Counted from the stretch's first letter, positions 3,051 through 35,901 are shown. The stretch: DNA of 35,920 nt from an uncultured Candidatus Saccharibacteria bacterium (GCA_964551495.1 CAZKCA010000006.1:1-35920); one strand, 5' to 3'. The notes: generated by a model from the letters alone, not told the origin. Program-made: numbers and translations.

Positions 3051-3111
3051 ATTAACACTCTAAAAGTACCAGATTTCGGGTTATTTTGCTAGTGGGTATT
3101 TTCTAATATAC

Positions 3112-3140
3112 TTGCAAGATTTGCTATTTTTTGGTATAAT
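3112..3140 (+). promoter_or_regulatory. Sigma70-like promoter for ORF 3163
   Basis: TTGCAA, 17-nt spacer, TATAAT. AAGGAG RBS at 3151-3156. Confidence 0.6.
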
Positions 3141-3162
3141 ATAGAGTAGAAAGGAGTTTAGC

Positions 3163-3669
3163 ATGTCGTATTTTGCGGTAGGTTACATTCATGGAGGAGA
3201 CGTTGAGGATATGTTAACTTTTTGTGATTTGATCTCTGGAAGTAGAAAGCCGTACCACGCGTATTTTCTAGAGCAAGAACTCTTGAACATAGTACAGTTG
3301 TGGCCAGTATTTCTTCATCAGATGGAGGTTATTGATATTCTGAAGTCTAGTTACAGAAAATCTTTACGGAAACATAGGAAGTTGAAATCTATTGGACCAG
3401 TACCAAATCAAATTCGTAGCTTTGGCCCTGCTTTCAAAATGTTGAGATACAGACCGAATAATTTTAAAACCATAATTACTCTGGATATGAATAAAACACC
3501 GGCGCTTATCTCAGTTCAGGGACACTCTCAAAAAATTGTACATGAACTTGCTAAAAAGGTGGGTATAGGACCAATTTTTGAAGTTAAAGATGACAGTGTT
3601 TTACTTCCAAGTGAAATGCTGGATCTTCAATTCTCTGTTGGTAAGATTTTGCAAATTATTGGTAAGTAG
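3163..3669 (+). CDS. Hypothetical protein (168 aa), no recognisable motif
   Basis: Good promoter and AAGGAG RBS 6 nt before the ATG. Visibly higher GC than neighbouring genes. Lies between tRNA-Val and the tRNA-Glu tail elements. Confidence 0.55.
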   Translation: MSYFAVGYIHGGDVEDMLTFCDLISGSRKPYHAYFLEQELLNIVQLWPVFLHQMEVIDILKSSYRKSLRKHRKLKSIGPVPNQIRSFGPAFKMLRYRPNNFKTIITLDMNKTPALISVQGHSQKIVHELAKKVGIGPIFEVKDDSVLLPSEMLDLQFSVGKILQIIGK

Positions 3670-3819
3670 TTGGATCAACATAAAAAACACTCTTGGGATG
3701 TAAATGATTACAAAACAAGAGTAAGGATCCGCATTAATTTTTAATAGCGGAGTCAAAAAGTAACCGTGTCATATTCAAATAGGAATTATGATGCGGTTTT
3801 TGATTTATATAGCGATTGG

Positions 3820-4003
3820 TGACCTTATGGGGAATCTTCCGCGAGTAAAAATTTTCCGTCGAAAATTTTTCTCGTGTCCGCAGCTCGCGACCCGTCGTGT
3901 TCGACGGGTACCCCGCTCCGCTTTTCGATTCCTCACGAAAACCTATAACATAGGTTTTCTGTAGGGTCATGCAAAAATCGCCTTTCGGCGATTCTGCTTT
4001 GCA
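3820..4003 (-). repeat. tRNA-tail element Glu-2 (CGGAGC...GGTCGCGAG core type), ending in a degenerate third copy of the tRNA-Glu tail
   Basis: Minus-strand order is as follows. First a 15-bp perfect palindrome containing the tRNA tail (3961-3975 / 3998-4012). Then hairpin GAAAACCTATGTTATAGGTTTTC, then GAGGAATCGAA (inverted T-loop), then AAGCGGAGCGGGGTA. Then the CCCGTCG-AACA-CGACGGG hairpin, TCGCGAGCTGCGGACACGAG and the AAAAATTTTC-GACG-GAAAATTTTT hairpin. It ends in GATTCCCCATAAGGTCA (3820-3836, 2 mismatches to the tRNA-Glu tail). Confidence 0.75.
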
Positions 4004-4125
4004 TGACCCTACGGGGAATCGAACCTTACAGGATCAGTACCCCGATTGAGATATTTTATTTCGCAGGCTCATAAAATATCTCAATCGGGCTTCGATTCCC
4101 CAGACTTTTTTACTTCATAAAAATG
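4004..4125 (-). repeat. tRNA-tail element Glu-1 (long AT-hairpin type), ending in an exact 22-nt copy of the tRNA-Glu tail
   Basis: tgaccctacggggaatcgaacc occurs at 4004-4025 and inside tRNA-Glu at 4126-4147. The interior carries GGGGAATCGAAG (inverted T-loop), a 19-bp hairpin CCCGATTGAGATATTTTAT / ATAAAATATCTCAATCGGG, then GTACTGATCCTGTAA. Confidence 0.8.
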
Positions 4126-4197
4126 TGACCCTACGGGGAATCGAACCCCGATTACCGCCTTGAAAAGGCGATGTCCTAACCGTTAGACGATAGGGCC
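4126..4197 (-). tRNA. tRNA-Glu (anticodon TTC)
   Basis: GGCCCTA/TAGGGTC acceptor, TCGCC-TTTTCAA-GGCGG anticodon arm, CGGGG-TTCGATT-CCCCG T-arm. No CCA encoded. Confidence 0.9.
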
Positions 4198-4594: not shown

Positions 4595-5206
4595 ATGAGA
4601 AACTATATTATTATTGGAGTTTTGGTTATTTTCGCTTTGGGGGTTTATTTTTTCTCAAACTCAAGTCCTATAATAAAAAACTACCCTCCAAAAAATGATA
4701 CTATTGTAGCCTTTGGGGACAGTCTGGTTAGGGGAGTTGGAGCAACAAATGGAGAAGGTTTTGTTTTCCTTTTGTCTCAGAAAATTGGAAAACCAATAAT
4801 AAACTTGGGTGTTTCTGGAGACACTACCGCAGAAGGTTTGGCTAGAATAAGCAATGTCACAAAAAGAAATCCGGGGACAGTTCTGGTGTTGCTTGGGGGT
4901 AATGATTATTTGAAAAAAGTTCCCCAAGAGGAAACATTTGAAAATTTGAGAGAGATAATAACTAAACTTCAATCAAATGGTGCTATGGTTGTTTTGCTTG
5001 GCGTGCGCGGGGGAGTTTTGTCTGATAAGTTTGGAAATGATTTTCAATCTTTAGCTAGAGAAACAGGTTCAGTTTATGTGCCAGATGTTTTGGATGGCAT
5101 AATTACAAATAGATCACTTATGTATGATACTGTTCATCCAAACGATAAAGGCTATGCTCTTATAGCAGAAAAGGTCTACGAAAGGGTAGCAAAATACATA
5201 AGGTAA
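4595..5206 (+). CDS. SGNH/GDSL-family hydrolase, membrane-anchored or secreted
   Basis: Blocks AFGDSL, GGNDY and DTVHPN, plus an N-terminal hydrophobic helix. The start is ambiguous (4544 or 4595). Confidence 0.75.
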   Translation: MRNYIIIGVLVIFALGVYFFSNSSPIIKNYPPKNDTIVAFGDSLVRGVGATNGEGFVFLLSQKIGKPIINLGVSGDTTAEGLARISNVTKRNPGTVLVLLGGNDYLKKVPQEETFENLREIITKLQSNGAMVVLLGVRGGVLSDKFGNDFQSLARETGSVYVPDVLDGIITNRSLMYDTVHPNDKGYALIAEKVYERVAKYIR

Positions 5207-15549: not shown

Positions 15550-18021
15550 ATGGCCAAAAAAGACACAGAAAAATCTAGCGAAGAATTGAAGCCTGTTTTA
15601 GGTGGAAATGTCATACCTCAAGAGATTACAGATGAAATGAAGAGGTCTTTTATAGACTATGCTATGTCTGTTATTACAGATCGTGCTCTGCCAGATGTTA
15701 GAGACGGTCTAAAACCTGTTCACAGAAGAATTCTTTATTCTATGAATGAAAATGGTCTTACTATTTCTGGTAAGACTAGGAAATCTGCGACGGTGGTTGG
15801 ATCTGTGATCGGAGATTATCACCCCCATGGTGATGTGGCTGTTTATGATGCTATGGTAAAAATGGCTCAAGACTTTACCATGCGTTATCCTCTCATTATT
15901 GGTCAAGGAAACTTTGGTTCTATAGATGGTGATAACGCTGCGGCTTATAGGTATACAGAAGCAAAAATGTCCAGACTAACATCTGAAGTTCTAAGAGACA
16001 TAGAAAAAGATACCGTTGATTTTATTCCAAACTATGATGGTACCAAAAAGGAACCAAAAGTTTTGCCTACTGCTGTGCCAAATCTTTTGTTAAATGGAAC
16101 ACTTGGTATTGCTGTTGGAATGGCCACAAATATTCCTCCTCACAACTTAGGTGAAGTAATGGACGCAGTTAACCATCTTTTGGATAACCCAGAAGCTACA
16201 ACAGATGATTTGTTGCAATTTGTAAAAGGGCCAGATTTTCCAGTAGGAGGTGTCGCTTTCAATCAAAAAGATATTTCTCATGCTTACGCACATGGTAAAG
16301 GTGGTGTTGTTGTCAGAGGTGTGGCCGAGGTTGTTGAAACCAAAGCAGGACAATTTCAAATTGTCATAACCTCAATACCTTTCAGAGTAAACAAGCAGAC
16401 TTTAGTGGAAAAAATCGCCGAGCTTTTAAGAGACAAAAAACTTGAAGGTATAAAAGGTCTTCGAGATGAATCAGCTAAAGATATAAGAGTAGTGATTGAT
16501 TTGAAAGGGGGAAGTCATCCTCAAAATGTTTTGAATTTCCTATACAAACATACTCAATTAGAAGACACATTTCATTACAATATGGTTGCCTTGGTAGATG
16601 GAGTACCTCAGACGCTTTCTCTAAAAGATGTTTTGGAGGAGTTTGTAAAGCACAGGAAGGAAGTAATTAAAAGAAGAACAGAATTTGATCTAAAAAAAGC
16701 ATTAGAAAGAGAACATATTCTTTTGGGTCTTAAAAAAGCATTAGATCATATAGATAAAATAATCAAGTTGATCAGAGGCTCAAAAGATACTCCAGAAGCT
16801 CACAAAAATTTGATAAAAGAGTTTAAGTTTTCTCCTATTCAAGCAACAGCTATTTTGGAAATGAAGCTCCAAAGGCTTGCTGGTCTTGAGAGAAAGAAGA
16901 TAGAAGATGAGCTAAAAGCAGTTCAACTTTTGATAGAGGAACTAAAGTCTATTTTAGGAAGTGTTAAGAAAATTATTTCTATAATTAAAAAAGAATCAGA
17001 AGAAATAAAAGAAAAGTATGGAGATGAAAGAAGGACTAAAATAATGAAAGGTGGGGTTCAAGTTCTTTCTGTGGAAGATCTTATACCAGACGAAGAAAAT
17101 GCTTTGGTTTTGACTGCTGGTGGGTATATAAAGAGAACAAACCCAGATGAATTTAGAAAACAAAGACGAGGTGGTGTGGGTGTGGTTGATTTAGATACCA
17201 AAGAAGAAGATTTTGTCACTCACCTTTTAACCGCTTCTACTCATAATGATCTTTTATTCTTCACAAACAAGGGGAAAGCTTATCAGACCAAGATGTATGA
17301 TATTCCAGAAGGTAGAAGAGCAACAAGAGGAAAGTCTGTTATGAATTTTTTGCCACTTTCCGAAGGGGAGAAAGTTACTGCAATTTTGCCTATGCCAAAA
17401 GAAGTCAAAAAATCTGACTCTTCAATAATGATGCTTACAAAACATGGTGTGGTCAAAAAATGTAGCGCCGCTAGTTTTCATGATGTAAGAATTTCTGGAA
17501 TTATTGCAATCAAACTAGATGGTAACGATGAGCTAGTTTCAACTTCTTTTGTAAACAAAAAAGATACATTTATTGTTGTGACAGAAAAAGGTCAGGCTAT
17601 TCATTTCAAGGAATCTGATATAAGAGAAATGGGTAGAACAGCTATGGGAGTGAGGGGAATAAAACTAGGTAAAGGAGATTCTGTTATTTCTGCTGATGTT
17701 GTTCCAAATACTTGGGACAGTCCTACACTTATGGTCATTTCTGAAAATGGTTATGGTAAAAGGACAGATATAGATGAATATAAAATCCAAAATAGAGGAG
17801 GTTCTGGAATAAAAACAGCAAAAGTTACATCTAAAACAGGTAAACTTATCTCAGCTAAACTTTTTGAAAACGATGATGCAGAAGTAGTAGCAATGTCTAA
17901 AAAATCTCAAGTTATAAGAACAGATGTAAAAGAAATTCCTGTACTAGGAAGACAAACTCAGGGTGTTAGAATAATGAAACTTCGCGAAGGGGATGGAATT
18001 GCATCTCTTGTGTGTTTGTAA
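15550..18021 (+). CDS. gyrA: DNA gyrase subunit A
   Basis: [22 protein letters not shown] (active-site Tyr region) and C-terminal beta-pinwheel repeats, 823 aa. Confidence 0.95.
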
Positions 18022-18051
18022 AAAGTTTATAAATTTTCCCTAATTTCAAAA

Positions 18052-18134
18052 CGTCCTCGATTTTTATAAAACAAAGCGCTCGTCACTGACCTCTCGCCAA
18101 ACTCGCTACGCTCAGACAGTGTCTCCGGCTGGCG
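18052..18134. repeat. GC-rich 83-nt intergenic repeat, copy B (inverted partner of 6203-6285)
   Basis: Reverse complement of copy A with about 10 mismatches. Lies directly downstream of gyrA and is followed by a T-rich run. Confidence 0.85.
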
Positions 18135-18273
18135 ATCCTCGTTTTTGTTTTAGCTAAAAATCTGCGAATGTTTTTAAATTAGGGAAAATTATTGATGAAG
18201 TTTTAAAAAATCAAGGCGAATATGTGTATTTCTTTCTTTTATATTGCAAAATAAAATAGTATTATAAATACAT

Positions 18274-18801
18274 ATGTTTTCTGATCCTGAAAAAAATATT
18301 GAACAATGTGGTATTCAAGCGGGTATGGATATCGCAGATTTAGGTGCCGGTTCAGGATTTTACACTATATCTGCTGCCAAAGCACTGGCTTCTACCGGTT
18401 GTGTTTATGCTGTAGATGCCCAAAAAGAGCTCTTAACTAAGTTAAAAAATACAGCTAGTAGGGAAGGTTTGTATAATATAGAAGTTGTTTGGGGAGATAT
18501 AGAAAAAGTTGGAGGAACTCATTTGAGAGAAGGTTCTATAGATTTTGTTATGCTATGCAATGTTTTGTTTCAAATAGAAGACAGAAAAGGCACTATTCAA
18601 GAAATAAAAAGAATATTAAAACCAAATGGTAGAGTTTTGGTTGTAGACTGGTCAGATTCTTTTGGTGGTATTGGTCCAAGACCAGAAAATATTATTCAGA
18701 GAAACGTTGCCTTGGAGATTTTTGAAGCCGAAGGTTTTCATTTGGACAGAGAAATTAGAGCAGGCGCACATCATTATGGTATTATTTTGAAAAAGCTATG
18801 A
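18274..18801 (+). CDS. Class I SAM-dependent methyltransferase
   Basis: Motif I DLGAGSGFYT, LKPNGRVLVVDW post-motif, 175 aa. Confidence 0.8.
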   Translation: MFSDPEKNIEQCGIQAGMDIADLGAGSGFYTISAAKALASTGCVYAVDAQKELLTKLKNTASREGLYNIEVVWGDIEKVGGTHLREGSIDFVMLCNVLFQIEDRKGTIQEIKRILKPNGRVLVVDWSDSFGGIGPRPENIIQRNVALEIFEAEGFHLDREIRAGAHHYGIILKKL

Positions 18802-20090
18802 AAGGAATGAGTAATTTTCAAATTGGACTAATGGTTATCTTCGGCGCATCTTTAGTGATTGGTCTTTTTGTGTTTGCCACCCAAAGAAGTAGTTTTGGAG
18901 AAGATTCAGCTTCTGTTTTGATTTGGGGAACTCTTCCTCAGGAAACTTTTGATACTGTTTACAAGGCTTCTAGTATTTCAAAAAATAAAAAAGTTTTAGT
19001 TTCTTATGTCAGAAAGGATCCAGCAGATTTTGATACTGATTTCGTAGAAGCTTTGGCAGACGGTAGGGGTCCAGATGTGGTTATTTTAAGACACGATTCT
19101 GTTTATACTCATAGAAATAGAATTTTCCCGATACCATACAGGAGTTTTAGTGAAAGAAATTTCAAGGACATTTTTATTGAAAATGGTGAAATATTTTTAG
19201 GACCTGAGGGTATAGTAGCCTTTCCGTTTATAGTAGATCCTTTGGTTATGTATTGGAACAGAGATATGTTCTCAAACAATCTCGTAGTCAACCCCCCAAG
19301 ATTTTGGGATGAATTTTACCCTCTTATAGAAAAGATAACCAGAAAAGATTCTTCTGGAAATGTTATGCAGAGTGCTATTGCTTTTGGAGAGTGGAGAAAT
19401 GTCACAAATGCCAAAAGTATTGTTTCTCTTCTTTTTATTCAGGCGGGTACACCGATTGTTTCTGTAGAAGCTGGAGAATATAGATCTGTGTTGGCTTCTC
19501 AATTTGATTATCCTGTTGCTCCAGCTCAGTCTTCTTTGAATTTCTATACCCAATTTTCCAACCCAACATCTGTGAATTATAGCTGGAATAGATCACTACC
19601 TTCTTCGCAAAACTTTTTCCTTTCTTCAAATTTAGCTACTTATATTGGTTTTGCTAGTGAAATATTTTCTTTACAACAAAAAAACCCAAACCTAAACTTT
19701 GATGTAACTTATGTTCCTCAGATACGATCTGCAGAAAATAGAACAAATTTTGCCAATCTGTATGGACTTTCTGTTGTTAGGCAATCAAAAAACATAGCAG
19801 CCGCATTTTCGGTTGTTACTTCTTTGGTAGAACCAGCATCACTAAAAGCTCTAGAAACAAAAACAAACTTACCACCTGTAAGAAGAGATTTGCTTGCGGA
19901 TAAGCCAACAGACGCCTATAGATCTGTATTTTATGACTCTGCTCTGGTTAGTAGATCTTGGATAGATCCAAGTCCAACAGACACCTCAGAAATATTTAGA
20001 ACAATGGTGGAATCAGTTACATCTGGTCAAGCCAGAATATCTGAATCATTAAACAGAGCAAATAGTTCTTTGGATAATTTATTTAGATAA
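18798..20090 (+). CDS. Membrane-anchored extracellular solute-binding-protein-like protein
   Basis: N-terminal TM anchor. DPLVMYWNRDMF resembles the family-1 SBP motif. Start overlaps the methyltransferase stop (ATGA). Confidence 0.45.
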   Translation: MKGMSNFQIGLMVIFGASLVIGLFVFATQRSSFGEDSASVLIWGTLPQETFDTVYKASSISKNKKVLVSYVRKDPADFDTDFVEALADGRGPDVVILRHDSVYTHRNRIFPIPYRSFSERNFKDIFIENGEIFLGPEGIVAFPFIVDPLVMYWNRDMFSNNLVVNPPRFWDEFYPLIEKITRKDSSGNVMQSAIAFGEWRNVTNAKSIVSLLFIQAGTPIVSVEAGEYRSVLASQFDYPVAPAQSSLNFYTQFSNPTSVNYSWNRSLPSSQNFFLSSNLATYIGFASEIFSLQQKNPNLNFDVTYVPQIRSAENRTNFANLYGLSVVRQSKNIAAAFSVVTSLVEPASLKALETKTNLPPVRRDLLADKPTDAYRSVFYDSALVSRSWIDPSPTDTSEIFRTMVESVTSGQARISESLNRANSSLDNLFR

Positions 20091-20093
20091 TTT

Positions 20094-20522
20094 ATGAAAA
20101 AAACCTTAATACATTCATTAATAATTTTTAGCTTAGCTTTCTTTGCTTTAACTTCTGTATCATTTGCTCAATCAGGTATAGAAGGTAACCAGCCTCCAGC
20201 TACACCAAGCGAAACTTCTGGCTATAGAGGGGTCATCCCTAATTGTCAGGGAAACACTTGTACTTGGAATGATATTATTAAGACAATAGATTATCTTGTT
20301 GATTTGGCTATGGGTATTGCTCTTGTATTTTCTTCGGCAGTTATAGCTTTTGCTGGATTTAAATATATGTCTTCCGGAGACAATCCAGGCAAGAGAAAAG
20401 AGGCAAATACAATGCTTCAAAAAGTTGTTATTGGAATTGTTTTGGTTATGGGTGCTTGGGTAATAGTTAATTTAATATTTACAGCTTTAGGTGCAGATCA
20501 GTCCATAAGATTTGCAATATAA
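20094..20522 (+). CDS. VirB2/TrbC-like (T4SS-type) pilin-family small membrane protein, paralog 1 of 6
   Basis: Signal peptide ending FAQ, then two hydrophobic helices joined by the FKYMSSGDNPGKRKE loop. Confidence 0.55.
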   Translation: MKKTLIHSLIIFSLAFFALTSVSFAQSGIEGNQPPATPSETSGYRGVIPNCQGNTCTWNDIIKTIDYLVDLAMGIALVFSSAVIAFAGFKYMSSGDNPGKRKEANTMLQKVVIGIVLVMGAWVIVNLIFTALGADQSIRFAI

Positions 20523-20526
20523 AAAT

Positions 20527-20946
20527 ATGAAAAAAACTTTAATACATTCATTAATAATTTTTAGCCTAGCTTTCTTTGCTTTAACTTCTGTATCATTTGC
20601 TCAATCAGGTATAGAAGGTAACCAGCCTCCAGCTACACCGAGTACTCCGAGCAATAATACGAGTTATGATATAAAAATAACAAACCCTTTGAAGGTGGGG
20701 GATAAGCTTACGGACATAATAGTGGCTGTTTTAAATAATGTTGTTATGCCTATAGCAGCAGTGGCAGCTGTGCTCTATATAATCTTGGCTGGTTTCAAAT
20801 ACGTTTCTGCCAGAGGTAACCCTGCCAAGATACAGAGTGCTCATCAAAATCTATTATGGGCGCTAGTTGGAACTGGTATTTTGTTAGGTGCAGCTGGTAT
20901 TTCTAGGGTTTTACAAAATACAGTAAATCAGTTTTTAATAAATTAA
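20527..20946 (+). CDS. VirB2/TrbC-like pilin-family protein, paralog 2
   Basis: True start at MKKTLIHS. The first 120 nt are nearly identical to paralog 1. Helix-loop-helix GFKYVSARGNPAKIQ. Confidence 0.55.
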   Translation: MKKTLIHSLIIFSLAFFALTSVSFAQSGIEGNQPPATPSTPSNNTSYDIKITNPLKVGDKLTDIIVAVLNNVVMPIAAVAAVLYIILAGFKYVSARGNPAKIQSAHQNLLWALVGTGILLGAAGISRVLQNTVNQFLIN

Positions 20947-20951
20947 TATTT

Positions 20952-21341
20952 ATGAAATATTTATTAAAATTATCTATATTTTTAATACCATCTTTTACTT
21001 TAGCTTTTTCCTTAGGAGGAGATAGTACTTTTAAAAACGTTATTTTTGAAATTGTAAGTATACTAGAACTGGCTTTACCTCTTTTATTTGGGGGTGCCCT
21101 GATTATTTTCTTTTGGGGATTATCAAAATTTGTTATAAATTCTGACAATGAGACTGAATTAAAAAAAGGCAAAAACTATATGCTCTGGGGCATTTTGGCT
21201 TTGTTTATATTAATTTCTTACAGAACAATTGTTGGTTTGGTAGTCAGAGATTTGGAATTTGGTGATGGAAATACTATTCCTCAGCTTCCAACAGGAGGAA
21301 ATGTAGAGAGTGTTAATAGTAATATAAATTTTAATCCTTAA
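20952..21341 (+). CDS. VirB2/TrbC-like pilin-family protein, paralog 3
   Basis: Signal peptide; FFWGLSKFVINSDNETELKKGKNYMLWGILALFIL. Confidence 0.55.
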   Translation: MKYLLKLSIFLIPSFTLAFSLGGDSTFKNVIFEIVSILELALPLLFGGALIIFFWGLSKFVINSDNETELKKGKNYMLWGILALFILISYRTIVGLVVRDLEFGDGNTIPQLPTGGNVESVNSNINFNP

Positions 21342-21344
21342 GAT

Positions 21345-21728
21345 ATGAAAAAAATATATAAAAATATAATTATATTATTAGTATTGTTTCCAAGTTTTTC
21401 TTTTGCTGCTTTAGATGGTCTCAAAGGGCTTATGAGTGAGTCTTTGGGTTTGTTAAATCTAGGTATAAGGATTATTTTTGCATTAGCTTTAGTTTTATTT
21501 TTCTGGGGTCTTGTCCAATTTATAATGAAGTCAGGGGATGCTAAATTACGAGATGAAGGTAAAAAAAGGATGATCTGGGGTATAATCGCTTTGTTTGTAA
21601 TGGTTTCTATATACGGAATATTAAACTTTGTTGGAAGTTTAGTTGGCATAAATCCAAATTCATCTGGGTCTCTAGAAGTTTGTCCTCCTGGTACTATCAA
21701 TGCTGGAGGCACTGGTCCTTGTGATTAA
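21345..21728 (+). CDS. VirB2/TrbC-like pilin-family protein, paralog 4
   Basis: Signal peptide; FFWGLVQFIMKSGDAKLRDEGKKRMIWGIIALFVMVSIYG. Confidence 0.55.
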   Translation: MKKIYKNIIILLVLFPSFSFAALDGLKGLMSESLGLLNLGIRIIFALALVLFFWGLVQFIMKSGDAKLRDEGKKRMIWGIIALFVMVSIYGILNFVGSLVGINPNSSGSLEVCPPGTINAGGTGPCD

Positions 21729-21828
21729 TTATCCACATTTTCTTGTATTTTAGCCAAATTTATACTATAATTTGGAGGTAGTTATTCGGTCGTTAGTTTT
21801 ATTAAAATATTTTAATAATTATAAAATA

Positions 21829-22182
21829 ATGAAGAAATTTATTTACACTGCTTTGTCTTTGTCACCTATGTTGGCTTTGGCACAAGAAGGAAACCTTGGT
21901 GGAGTTGAAAGATTGGTTAGACAATTTGGAGATATCCTAAATAGTCTTGTTATTCCAATATTGTTTGCTATTGCTATCATTTACTTCTTCTGGGGTCTTG
22001 TAAAATACATCAAGTCTGCAGGAGATCCAAAGGCAGCAGCTGAGGGAAGATCTATAATGATCTGGGGTATAATAGCTCTAGTTGTTATGGTTTCTGTTTA
22101 TGGTCTTATAGCTTGGGTTCAAAGTGCTTTTGGAATCCAAGGTGGAGCTACACCTACTCTTCCTACAGTTCCAGGTCTATAA
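21829..22182 (+). CDS. VirB2/TrbC-like pilin-family protein, paralog 5
   Basis: Start at MKKFIYTALS (the track starts at 21772). FFWGLVKYIKSAGDPKAAAEGRSIMIWGIIALVVMVSVYG. Confidence 0.55.
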   Translation: MKKFIYTALSLSPMLALAQEGNLGGVERLVRQFGDILNSLVIPILFAIAIIYFFWGLVKYIKSAGDPKAAAEGRSIMIWGIIALVVMVSVYGLIAWVQSAFGIQGGATPTLPTVPGL

Positions 22183-22194
22183 TAGCAGTATTTT

Positions 22195-22470
22195 ATGATT
22201 ACCATTGCTCCTTTCTTAAATAAAGTAAACGCTTTTATAATAAACCCTCTTATATATCTTTTGTTTGTTGTATCATTTGTTTACTTTGCCTACGGAGTTT
22301 TCAAATTTCTTACTCTGGACGCTTCTGATGGGAAGAGGATAGAAGCAAGAAATGCTATTTTGTGGGGGATTGTTGGAATGGTAATTATGTTTTCTGTTTT
22401 CGGGCTTATCAGGTTTGTCTTGGACACATTTGGTATAAGTCCATCCGAAGTTAGATATATCGAACTTTAA
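22195..22470 (+). CDS. VirB2/TrbC-like pilin-family protein, paralog 6 (no signal peptide)
   Basis: FAYGVFKFLTLDASDGKRIEARNAILWGIVGMVIMFSVFG shows the same helix-loop-helix. A terminator follows. Confidence 0.5.
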   Translation: MITIAPFLNKVNAFIINPLIYLLFVVSFVYFAYGVFKFLTLDASDGKRIEARNAILWGIVGMVIMFSVFGLIRFVLDTFGISPSEVRYIEL

Positions 22471-25128: not shown

Positions 25129-25157
25129 ATTCTATCACAAAAAGGCTAAAAAGTCAA
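25129..25157 (-). promoter_or_regulatory. Sigma70-like promoter for the GC-rich two-gene operon
   Basis: On the minus strand: TTGACT, 17-nt spacer, TAGAAT. AAGGAG RBS before the ATG at 25048. Confidence 0.55.
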
Positions 25158-25213
25158 GCTAAATTTTAATAAAAAAACAGCTCAACAAAGAGATATTTTT
25201 AATATTTTTATTA

Positions 25214-25394
25214 GTGGGCAAGGGGAGACTTGCCTCCAAATTTTCTTTCGTCGTCACTCAAGAAAATTCTAGGCGCCAGATTTCCGACAAGCTCTGTTGA
25301 GCTTGTAGACCGGAAATCTGTTCGAGTCACCTCACACAAAAATATATTTTTGCTATTGCTCCGACGAAAAAACCGGCTTTCGCCGATTTTCGTG
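25214..25394 (-). repeat. tRNA-tail element Leu-TAG (Leu type), ending in a 17-nt copy of the tRNA-Leu(TAG) tail
   Basis: gtgggcaaggggagact occurs at 25214-25230 and 25394-25410. Minus-strand order is as follows. Hairpin+U-tract, then GGTGACTCGAAC (inverted T-loop). Then a nested hairpin AGATTTCCG[GTCT ACAAGCTC-AACA-GAGCTTGT]CGGAAATCT and GGCGCCTAG. Then the AATTTTCTT-GAGTGACGACGA-AAGAAAATT hairpin, then the tail copy. Confidence 0.8.
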
Positions 25395-25476
25395 TGGGCA
25401 AGGGGAGACTCGAACTCCCAAGCCGTGAGGCACTAGTTCCTAAGACTAGCGCGTATACCAATTCCGCCACTTGCCC
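25395..25476 (-). tRNA. tRNA-Leu (anticodon TAG), class II long variable arm
   Basis: GGGCAAG/CTTGCCC acceptor, CTAGT-CTTAGGA-ACTAG anticodon arm, GGGAG-TTCGAGT-CTCCC T-arm. No CCA encoded. Confidence 0.9.
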
Positions 25477-25529
25477 AATGATTTATACTTTATAATATTT
25501 TTTTAGAAAAAGAAAGAGGGGATTTTTTT

Positions 25530-25705
25530 GAATCATGTGGTCAGGAATAAAAAAGGATTCTTCCGTGAGTAAAACTTTACTGTCCGCCTTGTTGTCGAGA
25601 CAGGTCGCAAAATTTTCTCGTGTCCGCAGCTCGCGACCAAGTCTGCTGACTTGGTACCCGCTCCGGTCTGCACATGTAAGAAAAAATCTGGAGCAGTCCA
25701 GATTT
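25530..25705 (-). repeat. tRNA-tail element unit Lys-A (distal), including its hairpin/U-tract module
   Basis: The core GACCGGAGCGGGTACCAAGTCAGCAGACTTGGTCGCGAG is shared with the Trp element. It ends ATTCCTGACC + ACATGATTC. The hairpin at 25681-25705 is identical to 26004-26028 (25 nt). Confidence 0.75.
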
Positions 25706-25815
25706 GAATCGTGTGGTCACAAATAAATTTCTGCTGAAATTTTTCGCGACCCCGGCTTGGCCCGTCGGCCTGCGCCTTGCACATGTAAACAAAAACAGCA
25801 TAACATGCTGTTTTT
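25706..25815 (-). repeat. tRNA-tail element unit Lys-B with its hairpin module
   Basis: ACATGTGCAAGGCGCAG, a GGCC-GACG-GGCC hairpin, GGGGTCGCG, an AAATTTC-AGCAG-AAATTT hairpin, then ATTTGTGACC + ACACGATTC. Preceded by the hairpin AACAGCAT-gtta-TGCTGTT plus T-run. Confidence 0.75.
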
Positions 25816-25894
25816 GAATCATGTGCACCCAGCAGGAATTTCTCCTACAATTTTCTTTCGTCGTCACTCAAGAAAATTCTAGGCGCCAGATTTT
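25816..25894 (-). repeat. tRNA-tail element unit Lys-C (truncated Leu-type unit), ending in a 19-nt exact copy of the tRNA-Lys tail
   Basis: 25819-25837 equals 26035-26053. The 45-nt block aattttctttcgtcgtcactcaagaaaattctaggcgccagattt is identical to the Leu-TAG element. Confidence 0.8.
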
Positions 25895-26029
25895 AATCTT
25901 TGTGGTCACAGATAATTTCCTCGTCGTCACTCGGAAATTTCCGCGACCCCGTCTCGCTTGTTTTGCTTGGTAGCAAAACATAGCTCCGCCTTGCACATGT
26001 ACTAAAAAATCTGGAGCAGTCCAGATTTT
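25895..26029 (-). repeat. tRNA-tail element unit Lys-D (proximal), including its hairpin/U-tract module
   Basis: The hairpin AAAATCTGGACTGCTCCAGATTTTTT follows tRNA-Lys. Then ACATGTGCAAGGCGGAGC, a GTTTTGCT-ACCA-AGCAAAAC hairpin and GCGAGACGGGGTCGCGG. Then an AATTTCC-GAGTGACGACGA-GGAAATT hairpin and ATCTGTGACC + ACAAAGATT. Confidence 0.75.
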
Positions 26030-26039
26030 ATTAGTCATG

Positions 26040-26112
26040 TGCACCCAGCAGGATTCGAACCTGCGACCATCTCCTTAAGAGGGAGTTGCTCTACCACCTG
26101 AGCTATGGATGC
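26040..26112 (-). tRNA. tRNA-Lys (anticodon CTT)
   Basis: GCATCCA/TGGGTGC acceptor, ACTCC-CTCTTAA-GGAGA anticodon arm, GCAGG-TTCGAAT-CCTGC T-arm. No CCA encoded. Confidence 0.9.
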
Positions 26113-26115
26113 GTA

Positions 26116-26263
26116 TGTGCTCGGAGTGGGAATCTCCCTCGAAATTTTTTCGTCGCCACTCAAAAATTTCTGGGCACCGGTTTGTCGACAAGCCCTGTTG
26201 GGCTCGTAGACCGACAAACCGTTCGATTCTCACGCACAAAGCTTTGCTTTGTTTCCGTGGCTG
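26116..26263 (-). repeat. tRNA-tail element Leu-TAA (Leu type), ending in a 19-nt copy of the tRNA-Leu(TAA) tail
   Basis: tgtgctcggagtgggaatc occurs at 26116-26134 and 26262-26280. Same module order as the Leu-TAG element, with compensated stem changes. The distal tail copy lies 3 nt from the 5' end of tRNA-Lys. Confidence 0.8.
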
Positions 26264-26345
26264 TGCTCGGAGTGGGAATCGAACCCACATCCCTTTCGGG
26301 ACAACATTTTAAGTGTTGCGTGTATACCAGTTCCACCATCCGAGC
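26264..26345 (-). tRNA. tRNA-Leu (anticodon TAA), class II
   Basis: GCTCGGA/TCCGAGC acceptor, CAACA-CTTAAAA-TGTTG anticodon arm, long variable arm, GTGGG-TTCGATT-CCCAC T-arm. Confidence 0.9.
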
Positions 26346-26346
26346 A

Positions 26347-26826
26347 TTAAATATTTTTACCAATATTTTTTCCTCTATGTGTAGGTTGAAGACTATGACA
26401 GTTTGGACACAAAATCCTCAAATTTTCTAGTCTATTATCGTACCTATTACCATTTACGTGGTCTAGTTCTAAAGGAATTCTACCGTCTGTCGATATTTTA
26501 GCCCAACCACATTGTTCACATTTTGGCTCTTTTAGTTTAGCTGAAAAAAGTCTTTTTTTCAACTTAAAACTCTGATATGTACTTTTTGAAACTAGAATTT
26601 TATAAAGTGGTATTATTGGATTTTCTCCAAATTTCATACCCTTATTCCATGTCATTCCAGTAAAATGAGAAGTATCTAGGTTATTTTGTTTTACGTATTT
26701 CTTAACTTGTTCGTAGTTTCCACCAGTAGGTTTCAGTCCTAAAAGTTTTATAACATTTCTAATACTTTTAGATTTTTTAACTGCCTTTATGAGCTGATCA
26801 TCTGACCATTTTCTAATTCCACCCAT
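26347..26826 (-). CDS. Free-standing HNH endonuclease (homing-endonuclease-like) with an N-terminal HTH-like domain
   Basis: CEQCGW...LELDHVNGNRYDNRLENLRILCPNCH is the zinc-bound HNH motif. The stop codon lies 1 nt from the tRNA-Leu(TAA) 5' end. Confidence 0.8.
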   Translation of the reverse strand: MGGIRKWSDDQLIKAVKKSKSIRNVIKLLGLKPTGGNYEQVKKYVKQNNLDTSHFTGMTWNKGMKFGENPIIPLYKILVSKSTYQSFKLKKRLFSAKLKEPKCEQCGWAKISTDGRIPLELDHVNGNRYDNRLENLRILCPNCHSLQPTHRGKNIGKNI

Positions 26827-34200: not shown

Positions 34201-34283
34201 GCGTCGGTGGTAGAGTGGTCAATTACAACAGACTGTAAATCTGTCGGCTTCGGCCTACGAAGGTTCGAATCCTTCCCGGCGCA
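34201..34283 (+). tRNA. tRNA-Tyr (anticodon GTA), class II long variable arm
   Basis: GCGTCGG/CCGGCGC acceptor, ACAGA-CTGTAAA-TCTGT anticodon arm, GAAGG-TTCGAAT-CCTTC T-arm. No CCA encoded. Confidence 0.9.
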
Positions 34284-34446
34284 CAAAATAATTCCCGTAA
34301 GGGAATTTTTTGATTGACGCCGGAAGTAAACCTCTGGGAGAGGTTTACGTTAGGATTCGAAAACCTGTGATAACTTTTTGTGCGAGTAGCAACAAAAAGT
34401 AGAACAGGTGTACCGTTCATGTAATGAAAGAATCCTTCCCGGCGCA
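34284..34446 (+). repeat. tRNA-tail element Tyr (long AT-hairpin type), ending in a 17-nt copy of the tRNA-Tyr tail
   Basis: gaatccttcccggcgca occurs at 34267-34283 and 34430-34446. The interior starts with the hairpin AATTCCC-gtaa-GGGAATT plus T-run. Next comes an inverted tail copy, TGACGCCGGAAG-[hairpin]-GTTAGGATTCGAA. Then a long hairpin AACCTGT...ACAGGT and GTACCGTTCATGTAATGAAA. Confidence 0.8.
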
Positions 34447-35690: not shown

Positions 35691-35830
35691 TTTGCGGGAG
35701 ATGGAGGAATCGGTCAGGAATATTTTTTTCGTCGTCACTCGAAAAATTTCCCGACCCGGACTCGCGACCAAGTCTGCTGACTTGGTACCCGCTCCGTCTT
35801 TCGATTCCAAAGATAAAACCTTTGGTTTTG
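35691..35830 (-). repeat. tRNA-tail element Trp (CGGAGC...GGTCGCGAG core type), ending in a 22-nt exact copy of the tRNA-Trp tail
   Basis: tttgcgggagatggaggaatcg occurs at 35691-35712 and 35827-35848. Minus-strand order is as follows. Hairpin CCAAAG-gttttat-CTTTGG, then GGAATCGAA (inverted T-loop) and AGACGGAGCGGGTA. Then a CCAAGTC-AGCA-GACTTGG hairpin, TCGCGAGTCCGGGTCGGG, and a hairpin with loop GAGTGACGACGA. Then ATTCCTGACC and the tail copy. Confidence 0.8.
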
Positions 35831-35901
35831 CGGGAGATGGAGGAATCGAACCCCCGACAACGGTTTTGGAGACCGTTGTTATACCACTTAACTAATCTCC
35901 C
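35831..35901 (-). tRNA. tRNA-Trp (anticodon CCA)
   Basis: GGGAGAT/ATCTCCC acceptor, ACGGT-CTCCAAA-ACCGT anticodon arm, GGGGG-TTCGATT-CCTCC T-arm, discriminator G. No CCA encoded. Confidence 0.9.

Follow-up and report, generated by a model that had tools for sequence, protein, structure and literature searches.

A family of structured units with a three-way-junction core behind tRNA genes of Candidate Phyla Radiation bacteria

Units behind the tRNA genes of the window

The stretch of DNA analysed in this study, 35,920 nucleotides (nt) assigned to an uncultured Candidatus Saccharibacteria bacterium (GCA_964551495.1, CAZKCA010000006.1:1-35920) and called the window throughout, is a chromosomal piece of a Candidate Phyla Radiation (CPR)/Patescibacteria genome with a GC content of ∼34%. 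Its gene content includes ftsZ/ftsA, gyrA, infB/rbfA, clpB and tsaD, the last of which directly adjoins tRNA-Val, and the named best matches of its IF-2 belong to Paceibacterota, Parcubacteria, Minisyncoccia and Zambryskibacteria. ARAGORN and Rfam together give eight tRNA genes and nothing further, ARAGORN reporting neither a transfer-messenger RNA (tmRNA) nor an extra tRNA. Behind six of the eight (Glu, Leu-TAG, Lys, Leu-TAA, Tyr, Trp), and always on the tRNA strand, lie structured units of ∼65-185 nt, the subject of this work. Modules were placed by reading the tRNA strand downstream of each tRNA and by exact string search, and the result bears out a preliminary description, made from the sequence alone, as regards the six hosts, the strand and the combined length of ∼1.5 kb (∼4% of the window). 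Where 11 copies had been counted there, we count ten clear units plus a CGGAGC...GAG remnant (25331-25363). The motif GAGTGACGACGA occurs five times in the window, all on the minus strand, compared with 0.66 occurrences expected, and its count was reached by none of 100 shuffles.

Four parts make up a full unit: a replacement 3' end for the tRNA, complete with trailer and terminator; an inverted copy of that 3' half; the conserved core; and an X-pairing strand, the tail. The inverted copy is divided by a hairpin (H1) into an anti-acceptor and the segment X (anti-T-stem/T-loop). X and tail were surveyed in 22 units at 11 tRNA isoacceptors (ten amino-acid identities) from nine assemblies, those other than the window being cited here by L numbers. 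In 21 of the 22, X matches the reverse complement of the host tRNA over 9-12 nt without a mismatch, beginning at T54 or G53; in the window, every non-Lys unit has an exact 9-11 nt reverse complement of the host's T-loop and 3' T-stem, as the preliminary description had stated. X follows host variants (tRNA-Lys of L004 has GTTCAAATCC and its X GGATTTGAAC) and complements the 3' T-stem strand without copying the 5' strand, as is seen in L037, where the 5' T-stem reads GTAGG and X reads GCAGG. The tail directly repeats 5-26 nt from G57 or A58 onward. It often carries trailer bases, and the duplication is therefore at the level of DNA. Its helix part is kept in every unit, while the acceptor part is often decayed or missing. 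Exact tails of 17-22 nt, claimed for the window at large, were found for Leu-TAG, Leu-TAA, Tyr, Trp and Glu-1, but that of Glu-2 is degenerate with 8 nt exact. RNAfold predicts that the 5' part of the unit pairs with the 3' tail and encloses the core hairpins; the X:tail helix, formed by a single strand folded in the tRNA sense, has the same sequence as the T-arm segment of the tRNA gene.

The left arm comes in two forms. In the short form, one hairpin lies between tRNA end and X. In the long form, the tRNA's acceptor 3' strand, trailer and terminator tip meet their mirror images, an anti-trailer and anti-acceptor, in a near-perfect palindrome of 15-25 bp; a variable H1 and then X come next. 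The tRNA 3' end is embedded, together with the terminator, in this long palindrome, an arrangement that had escaped the preliminary description. The hairpin of the proposed leading module, a hairpin plus U-tract, is present, but the U-tract is missing in several units, for example Leu-TAA. In the Lys subtype (units A, C and D), the extreme 3' end with trailer (TGCACATGA / ACATGTGCA) replaces the T-arm segment, and the cores are closed by GGGGTCGCGG/CTGTGACC with G.U pairs.

Cores occur as A ('CGGAGC...GCGAG'), B ('GGCGCCTAG') and C (long-AT-hairpin) types. They were scored with a covariance model (CM), R1, built from 15 cores of Saccharibacteria, Paceibacterota, Parcubacteria and Zambryskiibacteriota with no window-type copies used. 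The highest-scoring unit, Glu-2 (3820-4003, minus strand), is of the A5 type and long form, with a palindrome of the previous tail, terminator and anti-acceptor (3961-4012), H1 (3938-3958), X (3924-3934), a three-way-junction core (3836-3923) and the degenerate tail (3820-3835); R1 matches it at 3826-3935 with 129 bits (E ∼1e-34), and its fold has a z-score of -7.55 against shuffles. The Trp unit (35691-35829, minus; 52.8 bits, E ∼1e-12) is of the A1 type and short form, made up of a hairpin (35815-35828), X (35800-35808), core (35712-35799) and a tail (35691-35711) that repeats 35827-35847 exactly over 21-22 nt. Both Leu units are of the B type and lie on the minus strand. The one behind tRNA-Leu-TAA spans 26113-26262 in the short form and comprises a hairpin lacking a U-tract (26236-26252), X (26221-26231), P2/P3 (26179-26220), P4 (26136-26178) and a tail (26116-26134) identical over 19 nt to 26262-26280, with 37.8 bits (E ∼1e-7 to 1e-8) and a fold z-score of -5.98; tRNA-Lys begins 3 nt beyond it. 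The unit behind tRNA-Leu-TAG (25214-25393; 24.4-24.5 bits, E 0.00015 unfiltered and 0.00075 under the default filters) has a terminator (25364-25393), the remnant mentioned above, X (25320-25330; 9 nt exact), a P2/P3 arm with a GUCUAC/GU internal loop (25278-25319), a P4 arm with GA/GA and a GACG loop (25233-25277) and a tail (25214-25230) identical over 17 nt to 25394-25410.

The C type is represented by the Glu-1 and Tyr units. Glu-1 (4004-4124, minus) has a weak hairpin, X (GGGGAATCGAA, 4091-4101; an 11-nt reverse complement of T-loop and 3' T-stem), a long AT hairpin (4041-4090), GUAC with a small GUA-loop hairpin (4026-4040) and a tail copy (4004-4025) repeating 4126-4147 exactly over 22 nt; its R1 match (4010-4102, 15.6 bits) is weak. 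The Tyr unit (34285-34446, plus; 16.6 bits, E=0.03) is of the long form, with terminator (34285-34311), anti-acceptor (34316-34326), H1 (34327-34347), X (34351-34361), core (34362-34429) and a tail (34430-34446) identical over 17 nt to 34267-34283. An orthologous C-type Tyr unit was found in L199.

Four units, all on the minus strand, are stacked behind tRNA-Lys. Unit A (25888-26038; 15.4 bits, E=0.07) has trailer and terminator (26001-26037), the anti-end ACATGTGCA (25989-26000), which complements the tRNA-Lys end and flank, and an A-type core (25901-25988) closed by GGGGTCGCGG/CTGTGACC with G.U pairs included. Unit B (25822-25887) is a 5'-truncated B-type unit reduced to the P4 arm and the tail ATTCCTGCTGGGTGCACA, a copy of ∼19 nt. 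It is fused to unit A (25888-25893 / 25822-25887) at an 8-nt microhomology, AAATCTGG, which B-type units have in their P2' strand and which is also contained in the terminator stem AAAATCTGGACTGCTCCAGATTTT; the join is a clear case of illegitimate recombination. Unit C (25712-25821) consists of a terminator (25787-25821), an anti-end (25775-25786) and a reduced A-type core with an AGCAG loop (25712-25774). Unit D (25530-25711) has a terminator (25678-25711), an anti-end and an A5-like core with a P4 insertion (25536-25665), matched by R1 at 25550-25676 with 68 bits (E ∼1e-16 to 1e-17).

Fold of the core and copies in other CPR genomes

Alignment of 15 cores gives a mean column identity of 87% with more than 60 invariant columns, and the RNAalifold consensus is a three-way junction closed by P1, in which X is paired with the tail. 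P2 (CGGAGC/GCUGCG) leads through an internal loop (GNNUAC/GU) to a variable P3 hairpin with ANCA loops, and P4 is composed of CACGAG, an AT stem and a GACG loop. What had been described as separate modules (tetraloop hairpin, GC-rich linker and AT-stem hairpin) is together one three-way junction, and the supposedly invariant 12-nt loop is really a set of tandem G.A/A.G pairs, 2 bp and a GACG tetraloop, whose U-A pair becomes C-G in L004 and L199. Across the 15 cores, 97.7% of cells are paired compared with 85% in shuffles and 31-47% with partners slid. Changes on both sides occur in 14 of 37 pairs (64 cells), and none of 500 shuffles matches any of these measures, so that the covariation proposed as a check on the family is significant. 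P1 covaries (A-U/U-A/C-G/G-C) in step with the host T-arm. The one-sided changes in P2-P4 are G.U in 6/6 cases, which points to folding of the tRNA-sense strand, as RNA or as single-stranded DNA (ssDNA). The tRNA-sense strand gives the more stable fold in 7/10 units, and for the Lys array the folding energies are -223.5 kcal/mol in the sense direction and -199.2 kcal/mol in the other.

Matches of R1 in the window cover the full model length and lie on the tRNA strand only. Five units are significant (Glu-2, Lys-D, Trp, Leu-TAA, Leu-TAG); Tyr, Glu-1 and Lys-A are weak (15-17 bits, E=0.03-0.07), and no match was reported in the window scan for Lys-B and Lys-C. The same model recovers B-type and other units in L004, L012, L031, L037 and L199; across independent assemblies from four sources, its E-values reach 1e-35. 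Because R1 recovers B-type units, the A and B types are homologous and constitute one three-way-junction family, a relationship missed by the preliminary description. Both share the GAA(A/C)AG junction after X, the G(G/U)NUAC / GU loop below P3 and the ANCA and GACG loops. The C type has the same two modules in other order and was seen in the Tyr and Glu-1 units of the window and in the Tyr unit of L199, with remnants in L011 and L037. The earlier proposal that the core is common to different tRNAs and only X and tail are customised to the host holds well: 36 nt of core are identical between the Lys-D and Trp units, though their host tRNAs differ, 45 nt between the Leu-TAG and Lys-B units, and a 35-nt stretch of Lys-D and Glu-2 agrees at 94%. 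That the units form a genuine homologous family is, on this evidence, almost beyond doubt.

Many further copies, whose absence the preliminary description had named as a ground for refutation, are present in relatives and in other CPR lineages. The syntenic relative L004 (IF-2 78% identical; contig of the NCBI metagenome-assembled genome (MAG) JBAYWK01) has units behind six tRNAs (Leu-CAA, Trp, Tyr, Leu-TAA, Lys with at least five units, Leu-TAG). A scan of genome collections with GCGAGNTGCGGACACGAG returned 53 matches, 38 of them chance matches in GC-rich genomes and 15 in CPR genomes (8 in Saccharibacteria, the rest in Paceibacterota, Parcubacteria, Zambryskiibacteriota and Patescibacteria). 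True copies account for 14 of these 15; L050, which has no upstream GGAGC, no tRNA and no CM hit, was rejected as a chance match. In copies with a detected tRNA, GCGAGNTGCGGACACGAG lies ∼100-130 nt downstream on the same strand. The common layout runs from the tRNA end through a palindromic terminator, H1 and X (e.g. GGAATCGAA) to AAG CGGAGC GGGGUACC-hairpin-GGGUC GCGAG CUGCGGACACGAG, and ends with an AT hairpin with GACG loop, ACUCGCGGAAG and the tail. A metagenome scan with a 16-mer gave at least 120 loci, nearly all GC-rich noise; among the matches listed, clear copies are found only in L081 (three hits) and L092, with L141 marginal at 21.5 bits. The architecture recurs in independent assemblies from NCBI, ENA, JGI and Logan, and an assembly artefact, against which the preliminary description had advised a check, is therefore ruled out.

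The link to tRNA genes is strong. For 23 of 28 CM hits, a tRNA lies on the same strand 18-363 nt upstream (longer distances belong to later units of tandem arrays, of which one tRNA can have up to 4-5), and two more sit behind tRNAs cut by contig ends. The remaining three (Saccharibacteria L008, L019 and L051) have no detectable upstream tRNA. In L008 (∼4690-5000, minus) and L019 (∼1415-1750, minus), a GC-rich region of ∼250 nt with no tRNA precedes the A5 unit; it contains a long-range complement (GAATTCCGTCAG...TGACGGAATTC) and a GGTTCGAGCAAAG piece, has no Rfam match and could represent a further structured RNA or a larger kind of element. L051 carries, at 698-818 on the plus strand, the Rfam LOOT RNA (RF03000, 62.8 bits), which is unrelated to the units. 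Short-read contigs of close relatives (ends of L002 and L198; L001) stop right after rbfA/tRNA-Cys, where the cluster begins, which suggests that the repeated units break assemblies.

No described class corresponds to the units, in agreement with the preliminary description, and all the conditions which that description had set for its own refutation turned out in its favour. Rfam 15 at gathering thresholds returned only tRNAs over the whole window. Permissive searches gave nothing relevant at E≤10 over 25150-26360 (Leu-Lys-Leu) or at E≤1 over 3780-4130 (Glu), the Tyr and Trp units being covered at gathering alone; families with no match include hammerhead, hepatitis delta virus (HDV)-like, twister, pistol, hatchet, tmRNA, T-box and HEARO/omega-RNA. 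A hammerhead or HDV-like junction was considered and rejected: the strands CGAAAAG / GA / GGAAG are unlike the CUGANGA/GAA/H core, a double pseudoknot is absent and the ribozyme models give no CM hit. The Glu-2 unit had no blastn match in phage and plasmid collections, and, of five pattern scans of IMG/VR, two were empty and three gave 70 matches, all random, none of them a CM hit and the single C-type match a coding sequence. A promoter search inside the units found nothing above shuffles; some copies have a -35-like TTGACT in P4, with no consistent -10 partner. The literature searched for such tRNA-trailing units held no description of them. The only tRNA-adjacent small RNAs to surface there were the HDV-like 'theta' ribozymes that adjoin phage tRNAs (PMC10879173). 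These are likewise small structured RNAs directly downstream of tRNA genes, but the fold of the units is a nested three-way junction and not a double pseudoknot, and the units are set off from the tRNA by a hairpin or terminator and occur on CPR chromosomes instead of phage contigs.

Polymorphism at tRNA loci and a proposed route of insertion

Orthologous tRNA loci differ in their occupancy. The spacer from Leu-TAA to Lys measures 150 nt in the window, 169 in L004, 35 in L199, 33 in L045 and 763 in L200 (with a LAGLIDADG gene), and that from Lys to Leu-TAG 562, 953, 293 and 179 in the first four, with no value for L200. The tRNA-Trp site holds a unit in the window and L004 and is empty in L199 and L002. 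Behind tRNA-Tyr, the left arm (same H1) is shared by the window and L004, while the core is of the C type in the window, as it is in L199, and A5 in L004. A5/C chimeras are present in L011 and L037, the chimeric joins lying at microhomology. Variants of the P3 stem cross phyla: L012 (Paceibacterota) has the variant found in L011 and L051 (Saccharibacteria), L031 (Zambryskiibacteriota) that of L019, and L034 that of Lys-D and Trp of the window, with three variants found together in one MAG. Core variants are not distributed along taxonomic lines.

The host tRNAs themselves add to this picture. tRNA-Tyr is identical over 84/84 positions between the window (34201-34284), L004 (4203-4286; IF-2 78%) and L199 (3645-3728; 66%), and over 61/61 positions with the Saccharibacteria contig L011 (1-62), yet agrees at only 70/83 with L002 (3702-3784) despite IF-2 being 97% identical. 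The Lys, Leu-TAA and Cys tRNAs diverge along the phylogeny. This points to exchange of whole tRNA alleles between CPR lineages; tRNA-Tyr being identical where other tRNAs follow the phylogeny, tRNA-plus-unit cassettes are therefore exchanged horizontally, as is shown for the unit of tRNA-Tyr, and one and the same tRNA-Tyr together with the element's left arm is present in different phyla. tRNA-Trp has likewise been replaced (49/72 between the window and L002/L004).

The flanks bear on the direction of insertion. In L004, the Tyr unit has a full distal tail and then a terminator (AAAAAGAAAACCCCC...GGGGGTTTTT); L002 has another tRNA-Tyr allele and another unit, yet the terminator after the unit is the same. 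In the window, the sequence beyond the Trp tail, ...ATAAAACAAAAC..., agrees with the flank at the unoccupied site of L199, and L011 and L199 have homologous proximal trailer palindromes (CAAATGAAAAA...TTTTTCATTTGT). With an ancestral flank after the distal tail and a homologous palindrome on the proximal side, the proximal 3' end, trailer and terminator would therefore travel with the element, and the distal tail and its flank would represent the resident's old 3' end.

Taken together, these observations favour the reading of the units as a new family of small (∼80-190 nt), non-autonomous, non-coding mobile elements, specific to CPR/Patescibacteria, that insert into the 3' half of tRNA genes: units are present or absent and cores are swapped at orthologous tRNAs, chimeras exist, variants are blind to taxonomy and the ancestral flank lies past the distal tail. 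We hold this reading to stand at about even chances. Miniature mobile elements directed at the T-arm had already been suggested in the preliminary description and remain the best fit. The data show anatomy, homology, structure with its covariation, distribution, polymorphism and the horizontal exchange of the tRNA-Tyr unit; mobility as such, the crossover, the folded intermediate and any role as RNA are inferred. An element-borne segment from T-loop to 3' end would recombine with the matching segment of a resident tRNA gene, the crossover lying at or 3' of ∼position 57. The product would read, in order, tRNA positions 1-56, element 3' end, trailer, terminator, anti-tail, H1, X, core, old 3' end (tail) and old flank, which is exactly the order seen. 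The tRNA would stay intact and remain a target, such that units stack with the newest nearest the tRNA. Cores could be exchanged between units by recombination at X, tail and short homologies, and tRNA-plus-element units could pass between CPR lineages with the conserved tRNA as homology anchor. A possible catalyst is a trans-encoded recombinase acting on the folded target mimic, comparable to CTXphi attP(+) or integron attC, in which the folded X/anti-acceptor and tail would rebuild the target duplex sequence. Alternatively, host recombination of imported DNA may suffice in these bacteria, which presumably depend on DNA uptake, with the tRNA (left) and the tail helix strand (right) as homology arms.

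Several points weigh against mobility or against this route. A unit lies behind tRNA-Tyr in 7/7 genomes seen, for which a conserved function is equally possible. The proximal hairpin of the L004 Leu-TAA unit resembles that of the empty L199 site, which fits insertion after the terminator better than insertion at the T-loop. Tails in L020, L037, L045 and L012 lack the acceptor part, and the host end is therefore not duplicated by every insertion. Unpaired core nucleotides are almost invariant across CPR lineages, which resembles a functional RNA more than a typical miniature inverted-repeat transposable element (MITE), and a forced alignment of all types gives a weak strand asymmetry (23 G.U vs 16 A.C). 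The 30 open reading frames (ORFs) of the window include no integrase, transposase, HUH protein or reverse transcriptase, as the preliminary description had noted for the first two, and no recombinase was called beside the copies in L002, L004 and L199. No autonomous, ORF-bearing copy was found, and neither an excised or circular form nor a strictly isogenic pair of empty and filled sites was seen; the only contig with a protein identical to the window's RbfA measures 1 kb.

Other occupants of the tRNA spacers were observed as well. Free-standing homing endonuclease genes (HEGs) lie in spacers that are 28-36 nt in relatives. As the preliminary description had it, tRNA-Val and tRNA-Cys carry no unit, but tRNA-Cys is followed by an HNH homing-endonuclease-like ORF (26347-26826, minus; Pfam HNH/HNH_3), which fills the spacer to tRNA-Leu-TAA (554 nt in the window; 28 in L004, 36 in L199, 32 in L045, 30 in L200) and is another mobile occupant outside the unit family. 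Further HEGs are LAGLIDADG genes in L200 (∼3100-3830) and L002 (3770-4558) and a GIY-YIG gene in L004 (4294-4506). Both HEGs that lie 5' of tRNA-Tyr come after a partial copy of the 5' part of that tRNA, and a GC hairpin interrupts the copy in L004. HEGs at tRNA loci resemble the units in occupying tRNA spacers, in partial tRNA duplication, whole-allele replacement and horizontal spread; they differ in carrying an ORF and a partial tRNA copy 5', whereas the units have no ORF and their copy 3'. In ENA ERZ1426827, a relative of L200 (IF-2 64%), a LAGLIDADG gene comes after the post-rbfA tRNA cluster, and beyond it lies a large serine recombinase (Resolvase and Recombinase domains) with small phage-like ORFs alongside; to all appearances a bona fide integrative element occupies the same tRNA locus there. 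Elsewhere in the window, a type IV secretion system pilin/TrbC-like cluster of 5-6 small genes lies beside a solute-binding protein gene (window 20094-22470; conserved in L004 at 17441-19873 and L199 at 17148-19572), with a 117-nt direct repeat of 97% identity (20093-20209 / 20526-20642) between two pilin genes.

Known systems, alternative readings and significance

Among known systems, tRNA-targeting integrase elements, with their T-loop sublocation, and the integrase-less satellites and cis-mobilizable elements derived from them offer one of the closest comparisons. The units share with them insertion in the tRNA 3' half, supply of a replacement 3' end and tandem accretion, as well as direct repeats of the kind left by tyrosine integrases (exact tRNA copies, 17-22 nt long in the window and 5-26 nt long over the 22 units). 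They are, however, 50-500 times smaller, without cargo and with no integrase in reach, and they share one core over 11 isoacceptors, an inverted target copy and a covarying three-way junction. Integron attC and CTXphi attP(+) sites provide another, tentative analogy: a single strand folds, inverted segments would rebuild a target-like duplex, stem structure is conserved over sequence and the fold is strand-specific. In the units, the stem (X:tail plus anti-acceptor:acceptor) reproduces the tRNA-gene duplex, and the RYYYAAC/GTTRRRY boxes of attC are not evident by eye. The units differ from both in that their target would be the tRNA T-arm and not attI or dif, that core loops and junctions are conserved in sequence and that no dependence on IntI or Xer is known. 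MITEs, bacterial interspersed mosaic elements (BIMEs) and repetitive extragenic palindromes are, like the units, small, non-coding, hairpin-forming, multi-copy, modular or mosaic, and non-autonomous. Unlike MITEs, the units have inverted termini specific to the host tRNA without family-wide terminal inverted repeats, and a variable duplication of 5-26 nt, always of the tRNA tail, in place of a fixed target-site duplication; unlike MITEs and BIMEs, their site is strictly tRNA-linked and their orientation fixed. No parent insertion sequence was found in the window or loci, and no RAYT-like (Y1 transposase) domain in the window ORFs scanned. The units work most like integrase-type tRNA-targeting elements and folded-ssDNA sites, yet fail defining features of each.

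The rival that survives best, though we consider it unlikely, is a functional non-coding RNA derived from the tRNA 3' trailer and co-transcribed by read-through or in polycistronic tRNA precursors. X and the anti-acceptor would pair with the 3' half of the upstream tRNA or with the tail, and the unit would serve as a switch, a processing or quality-control device or a stable small RNA, its variation in copy number arising from ordinary duplication and loss together with horizontal transfer of tRNA loci. The invariant junction and loop nucleotides with stems that covary across CPR lineages speak for it, as do the one-sided G.U changes on the tRNA-sense strand, the usually more stable sense fold, the constant occupancy behind tRNA-Tyr and an X that is still perfectly complementary to the T-arm where the tail has decayed (L020, L037, L045). 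In addition, downstream tRNAs begin 2-19 nt past the unit (window Lys, L004 Lys, L045 Leu-TAG), which leaves no room for a promoter, and those units must therefore be transcribed; the Leu-TAA unit, with tRNA-Lys 3 nt beyond and no U-tract terminator of its own, must be co-transcribed for this reason. A strong terminator nonetheless separates tRNA from core in the long form, the same position can hold any of three interchangeable core types or a truncated chimera, a unit is missing behind many orthologous tRNAs, up to 4-5 stand in tandem behind one tRNA, and the direct tail copy with its trailer bases decays in the manner of a relic; nor is there an evident benefit or an Rfam family match. An RNA presenting a mimic of the tRNA acceptor/T-arm, the second suggestion of the preliminary description, grades weaker than mobile elements. 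In contrast to a tRNA-like structure or tmRNA, the T-loop bases are, in the fold, Watson-Crick paired to X, the core stands in the loop's place and the acceptor part is often decayed or absent.

More speculative, and improbable in our estimate, is the idea that the activity resides in the conserved three-way junction. Working as folded ssDNA or as an RNA, catalytic or guiding, the junction would read the two strands of the universally conserved T-loop TCGA region by means of X and tail, and would either direct its own insertion into tRNA genes or cleave the core-tail junction between GGAAG and A. Rather doubtful, too, is the reading of the units as orphan guides, by analogy with bridge RNA, seekRNA or omega-RNA, for an RNA-guided enzyme (recombinase or nuclease) whose gene lies elsewhere; here X (antisense) and tail (sense) would read both strands at T-loop positions 54-65 and the junction would be a protein-binding scaffold. 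A conserved scaffold with two customised segments that track the host tRNA, programmable over 11 isoacceptors with a shared core, is what such a guide would look like, and the size of ∼110-180 nt and the RNA-like covariation fit. Yet there is no IS110, TnpB, IscB or Cas gene in the window or beside any copy seen, and, in particular, no DEDD/Tnp recombinase gene of the IS110/IS1111 kind in the window; the guide-like segments are much longer than those of known bridge RNAs and pair with each other in the three-way junction, Rfam gives no hit to omega-RNA or HEARO models, and copies are located at the target itself, not within a transposon.

Where integrases insert DNA at tRNA genes, the typical traces are direct repeats that extend from the T-loop to the end of the tRNA's 3' part, and units accreted in tandem; both are observed here. 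The units could accordingly be read as scars of repeated integration and excision of larger tRNA-targeting elements (prophages, integrative and conjugative elements, islands), with the tails as attR/attL remnants and the 'core' as leftover attP arm DNA. We think this very doubtful, given a constant small size with a closed covarying fold, the same core behind 11 isoacceptors, which no single integrase specificity explains, an inverted copy X that is foreign to att scars, the absence of integrase or cargo genes nearby and the lack of anything similar in the phage, plasmid and IMG/VR collections. Chance hairpins or an assembly artefact, for which only the AT-rich, hairpin-prone intergenic background could be cited, are already refuted by the motif count above every shuffle, the exact 17-22 nt repeats, CM E-values to 1e-35 in assemblies from four sources and the covariation controls, and retain practically no probability.

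The units are real, widespread in CPR bacteria, statistically well supported and undescribed. The likeliest reading is a new kind of mini-element that homes to tRNA genes, mimics its target and has a conserved three-way-junction core. If so, unnoticed structured mini-elements colonise tRNA genes in several CPR lineages, bearing a customised mirror of their target and moving between lineages with tRNA alleles, and would add to the known kinds of mobile DNA or, failing that, to the known conserved RNA folds one with ∼60 invariant positions. Such a load is unexpected in tiny, streamlined genomes and would account for the breaking of CPR assemblies at tRNA loci. A 110-nt motif with clear boundaries would offer a testable handle on site-specific insertion programmed by target mimicry. 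The tRNA loci with their resident HEGs would be hot spots of gene exchange in these organisms. Were the junction itself active, it would represent a protein-minimal, tRNA-programmable homing or tRNA-3'-half donor system widespread in CPR bacteria.

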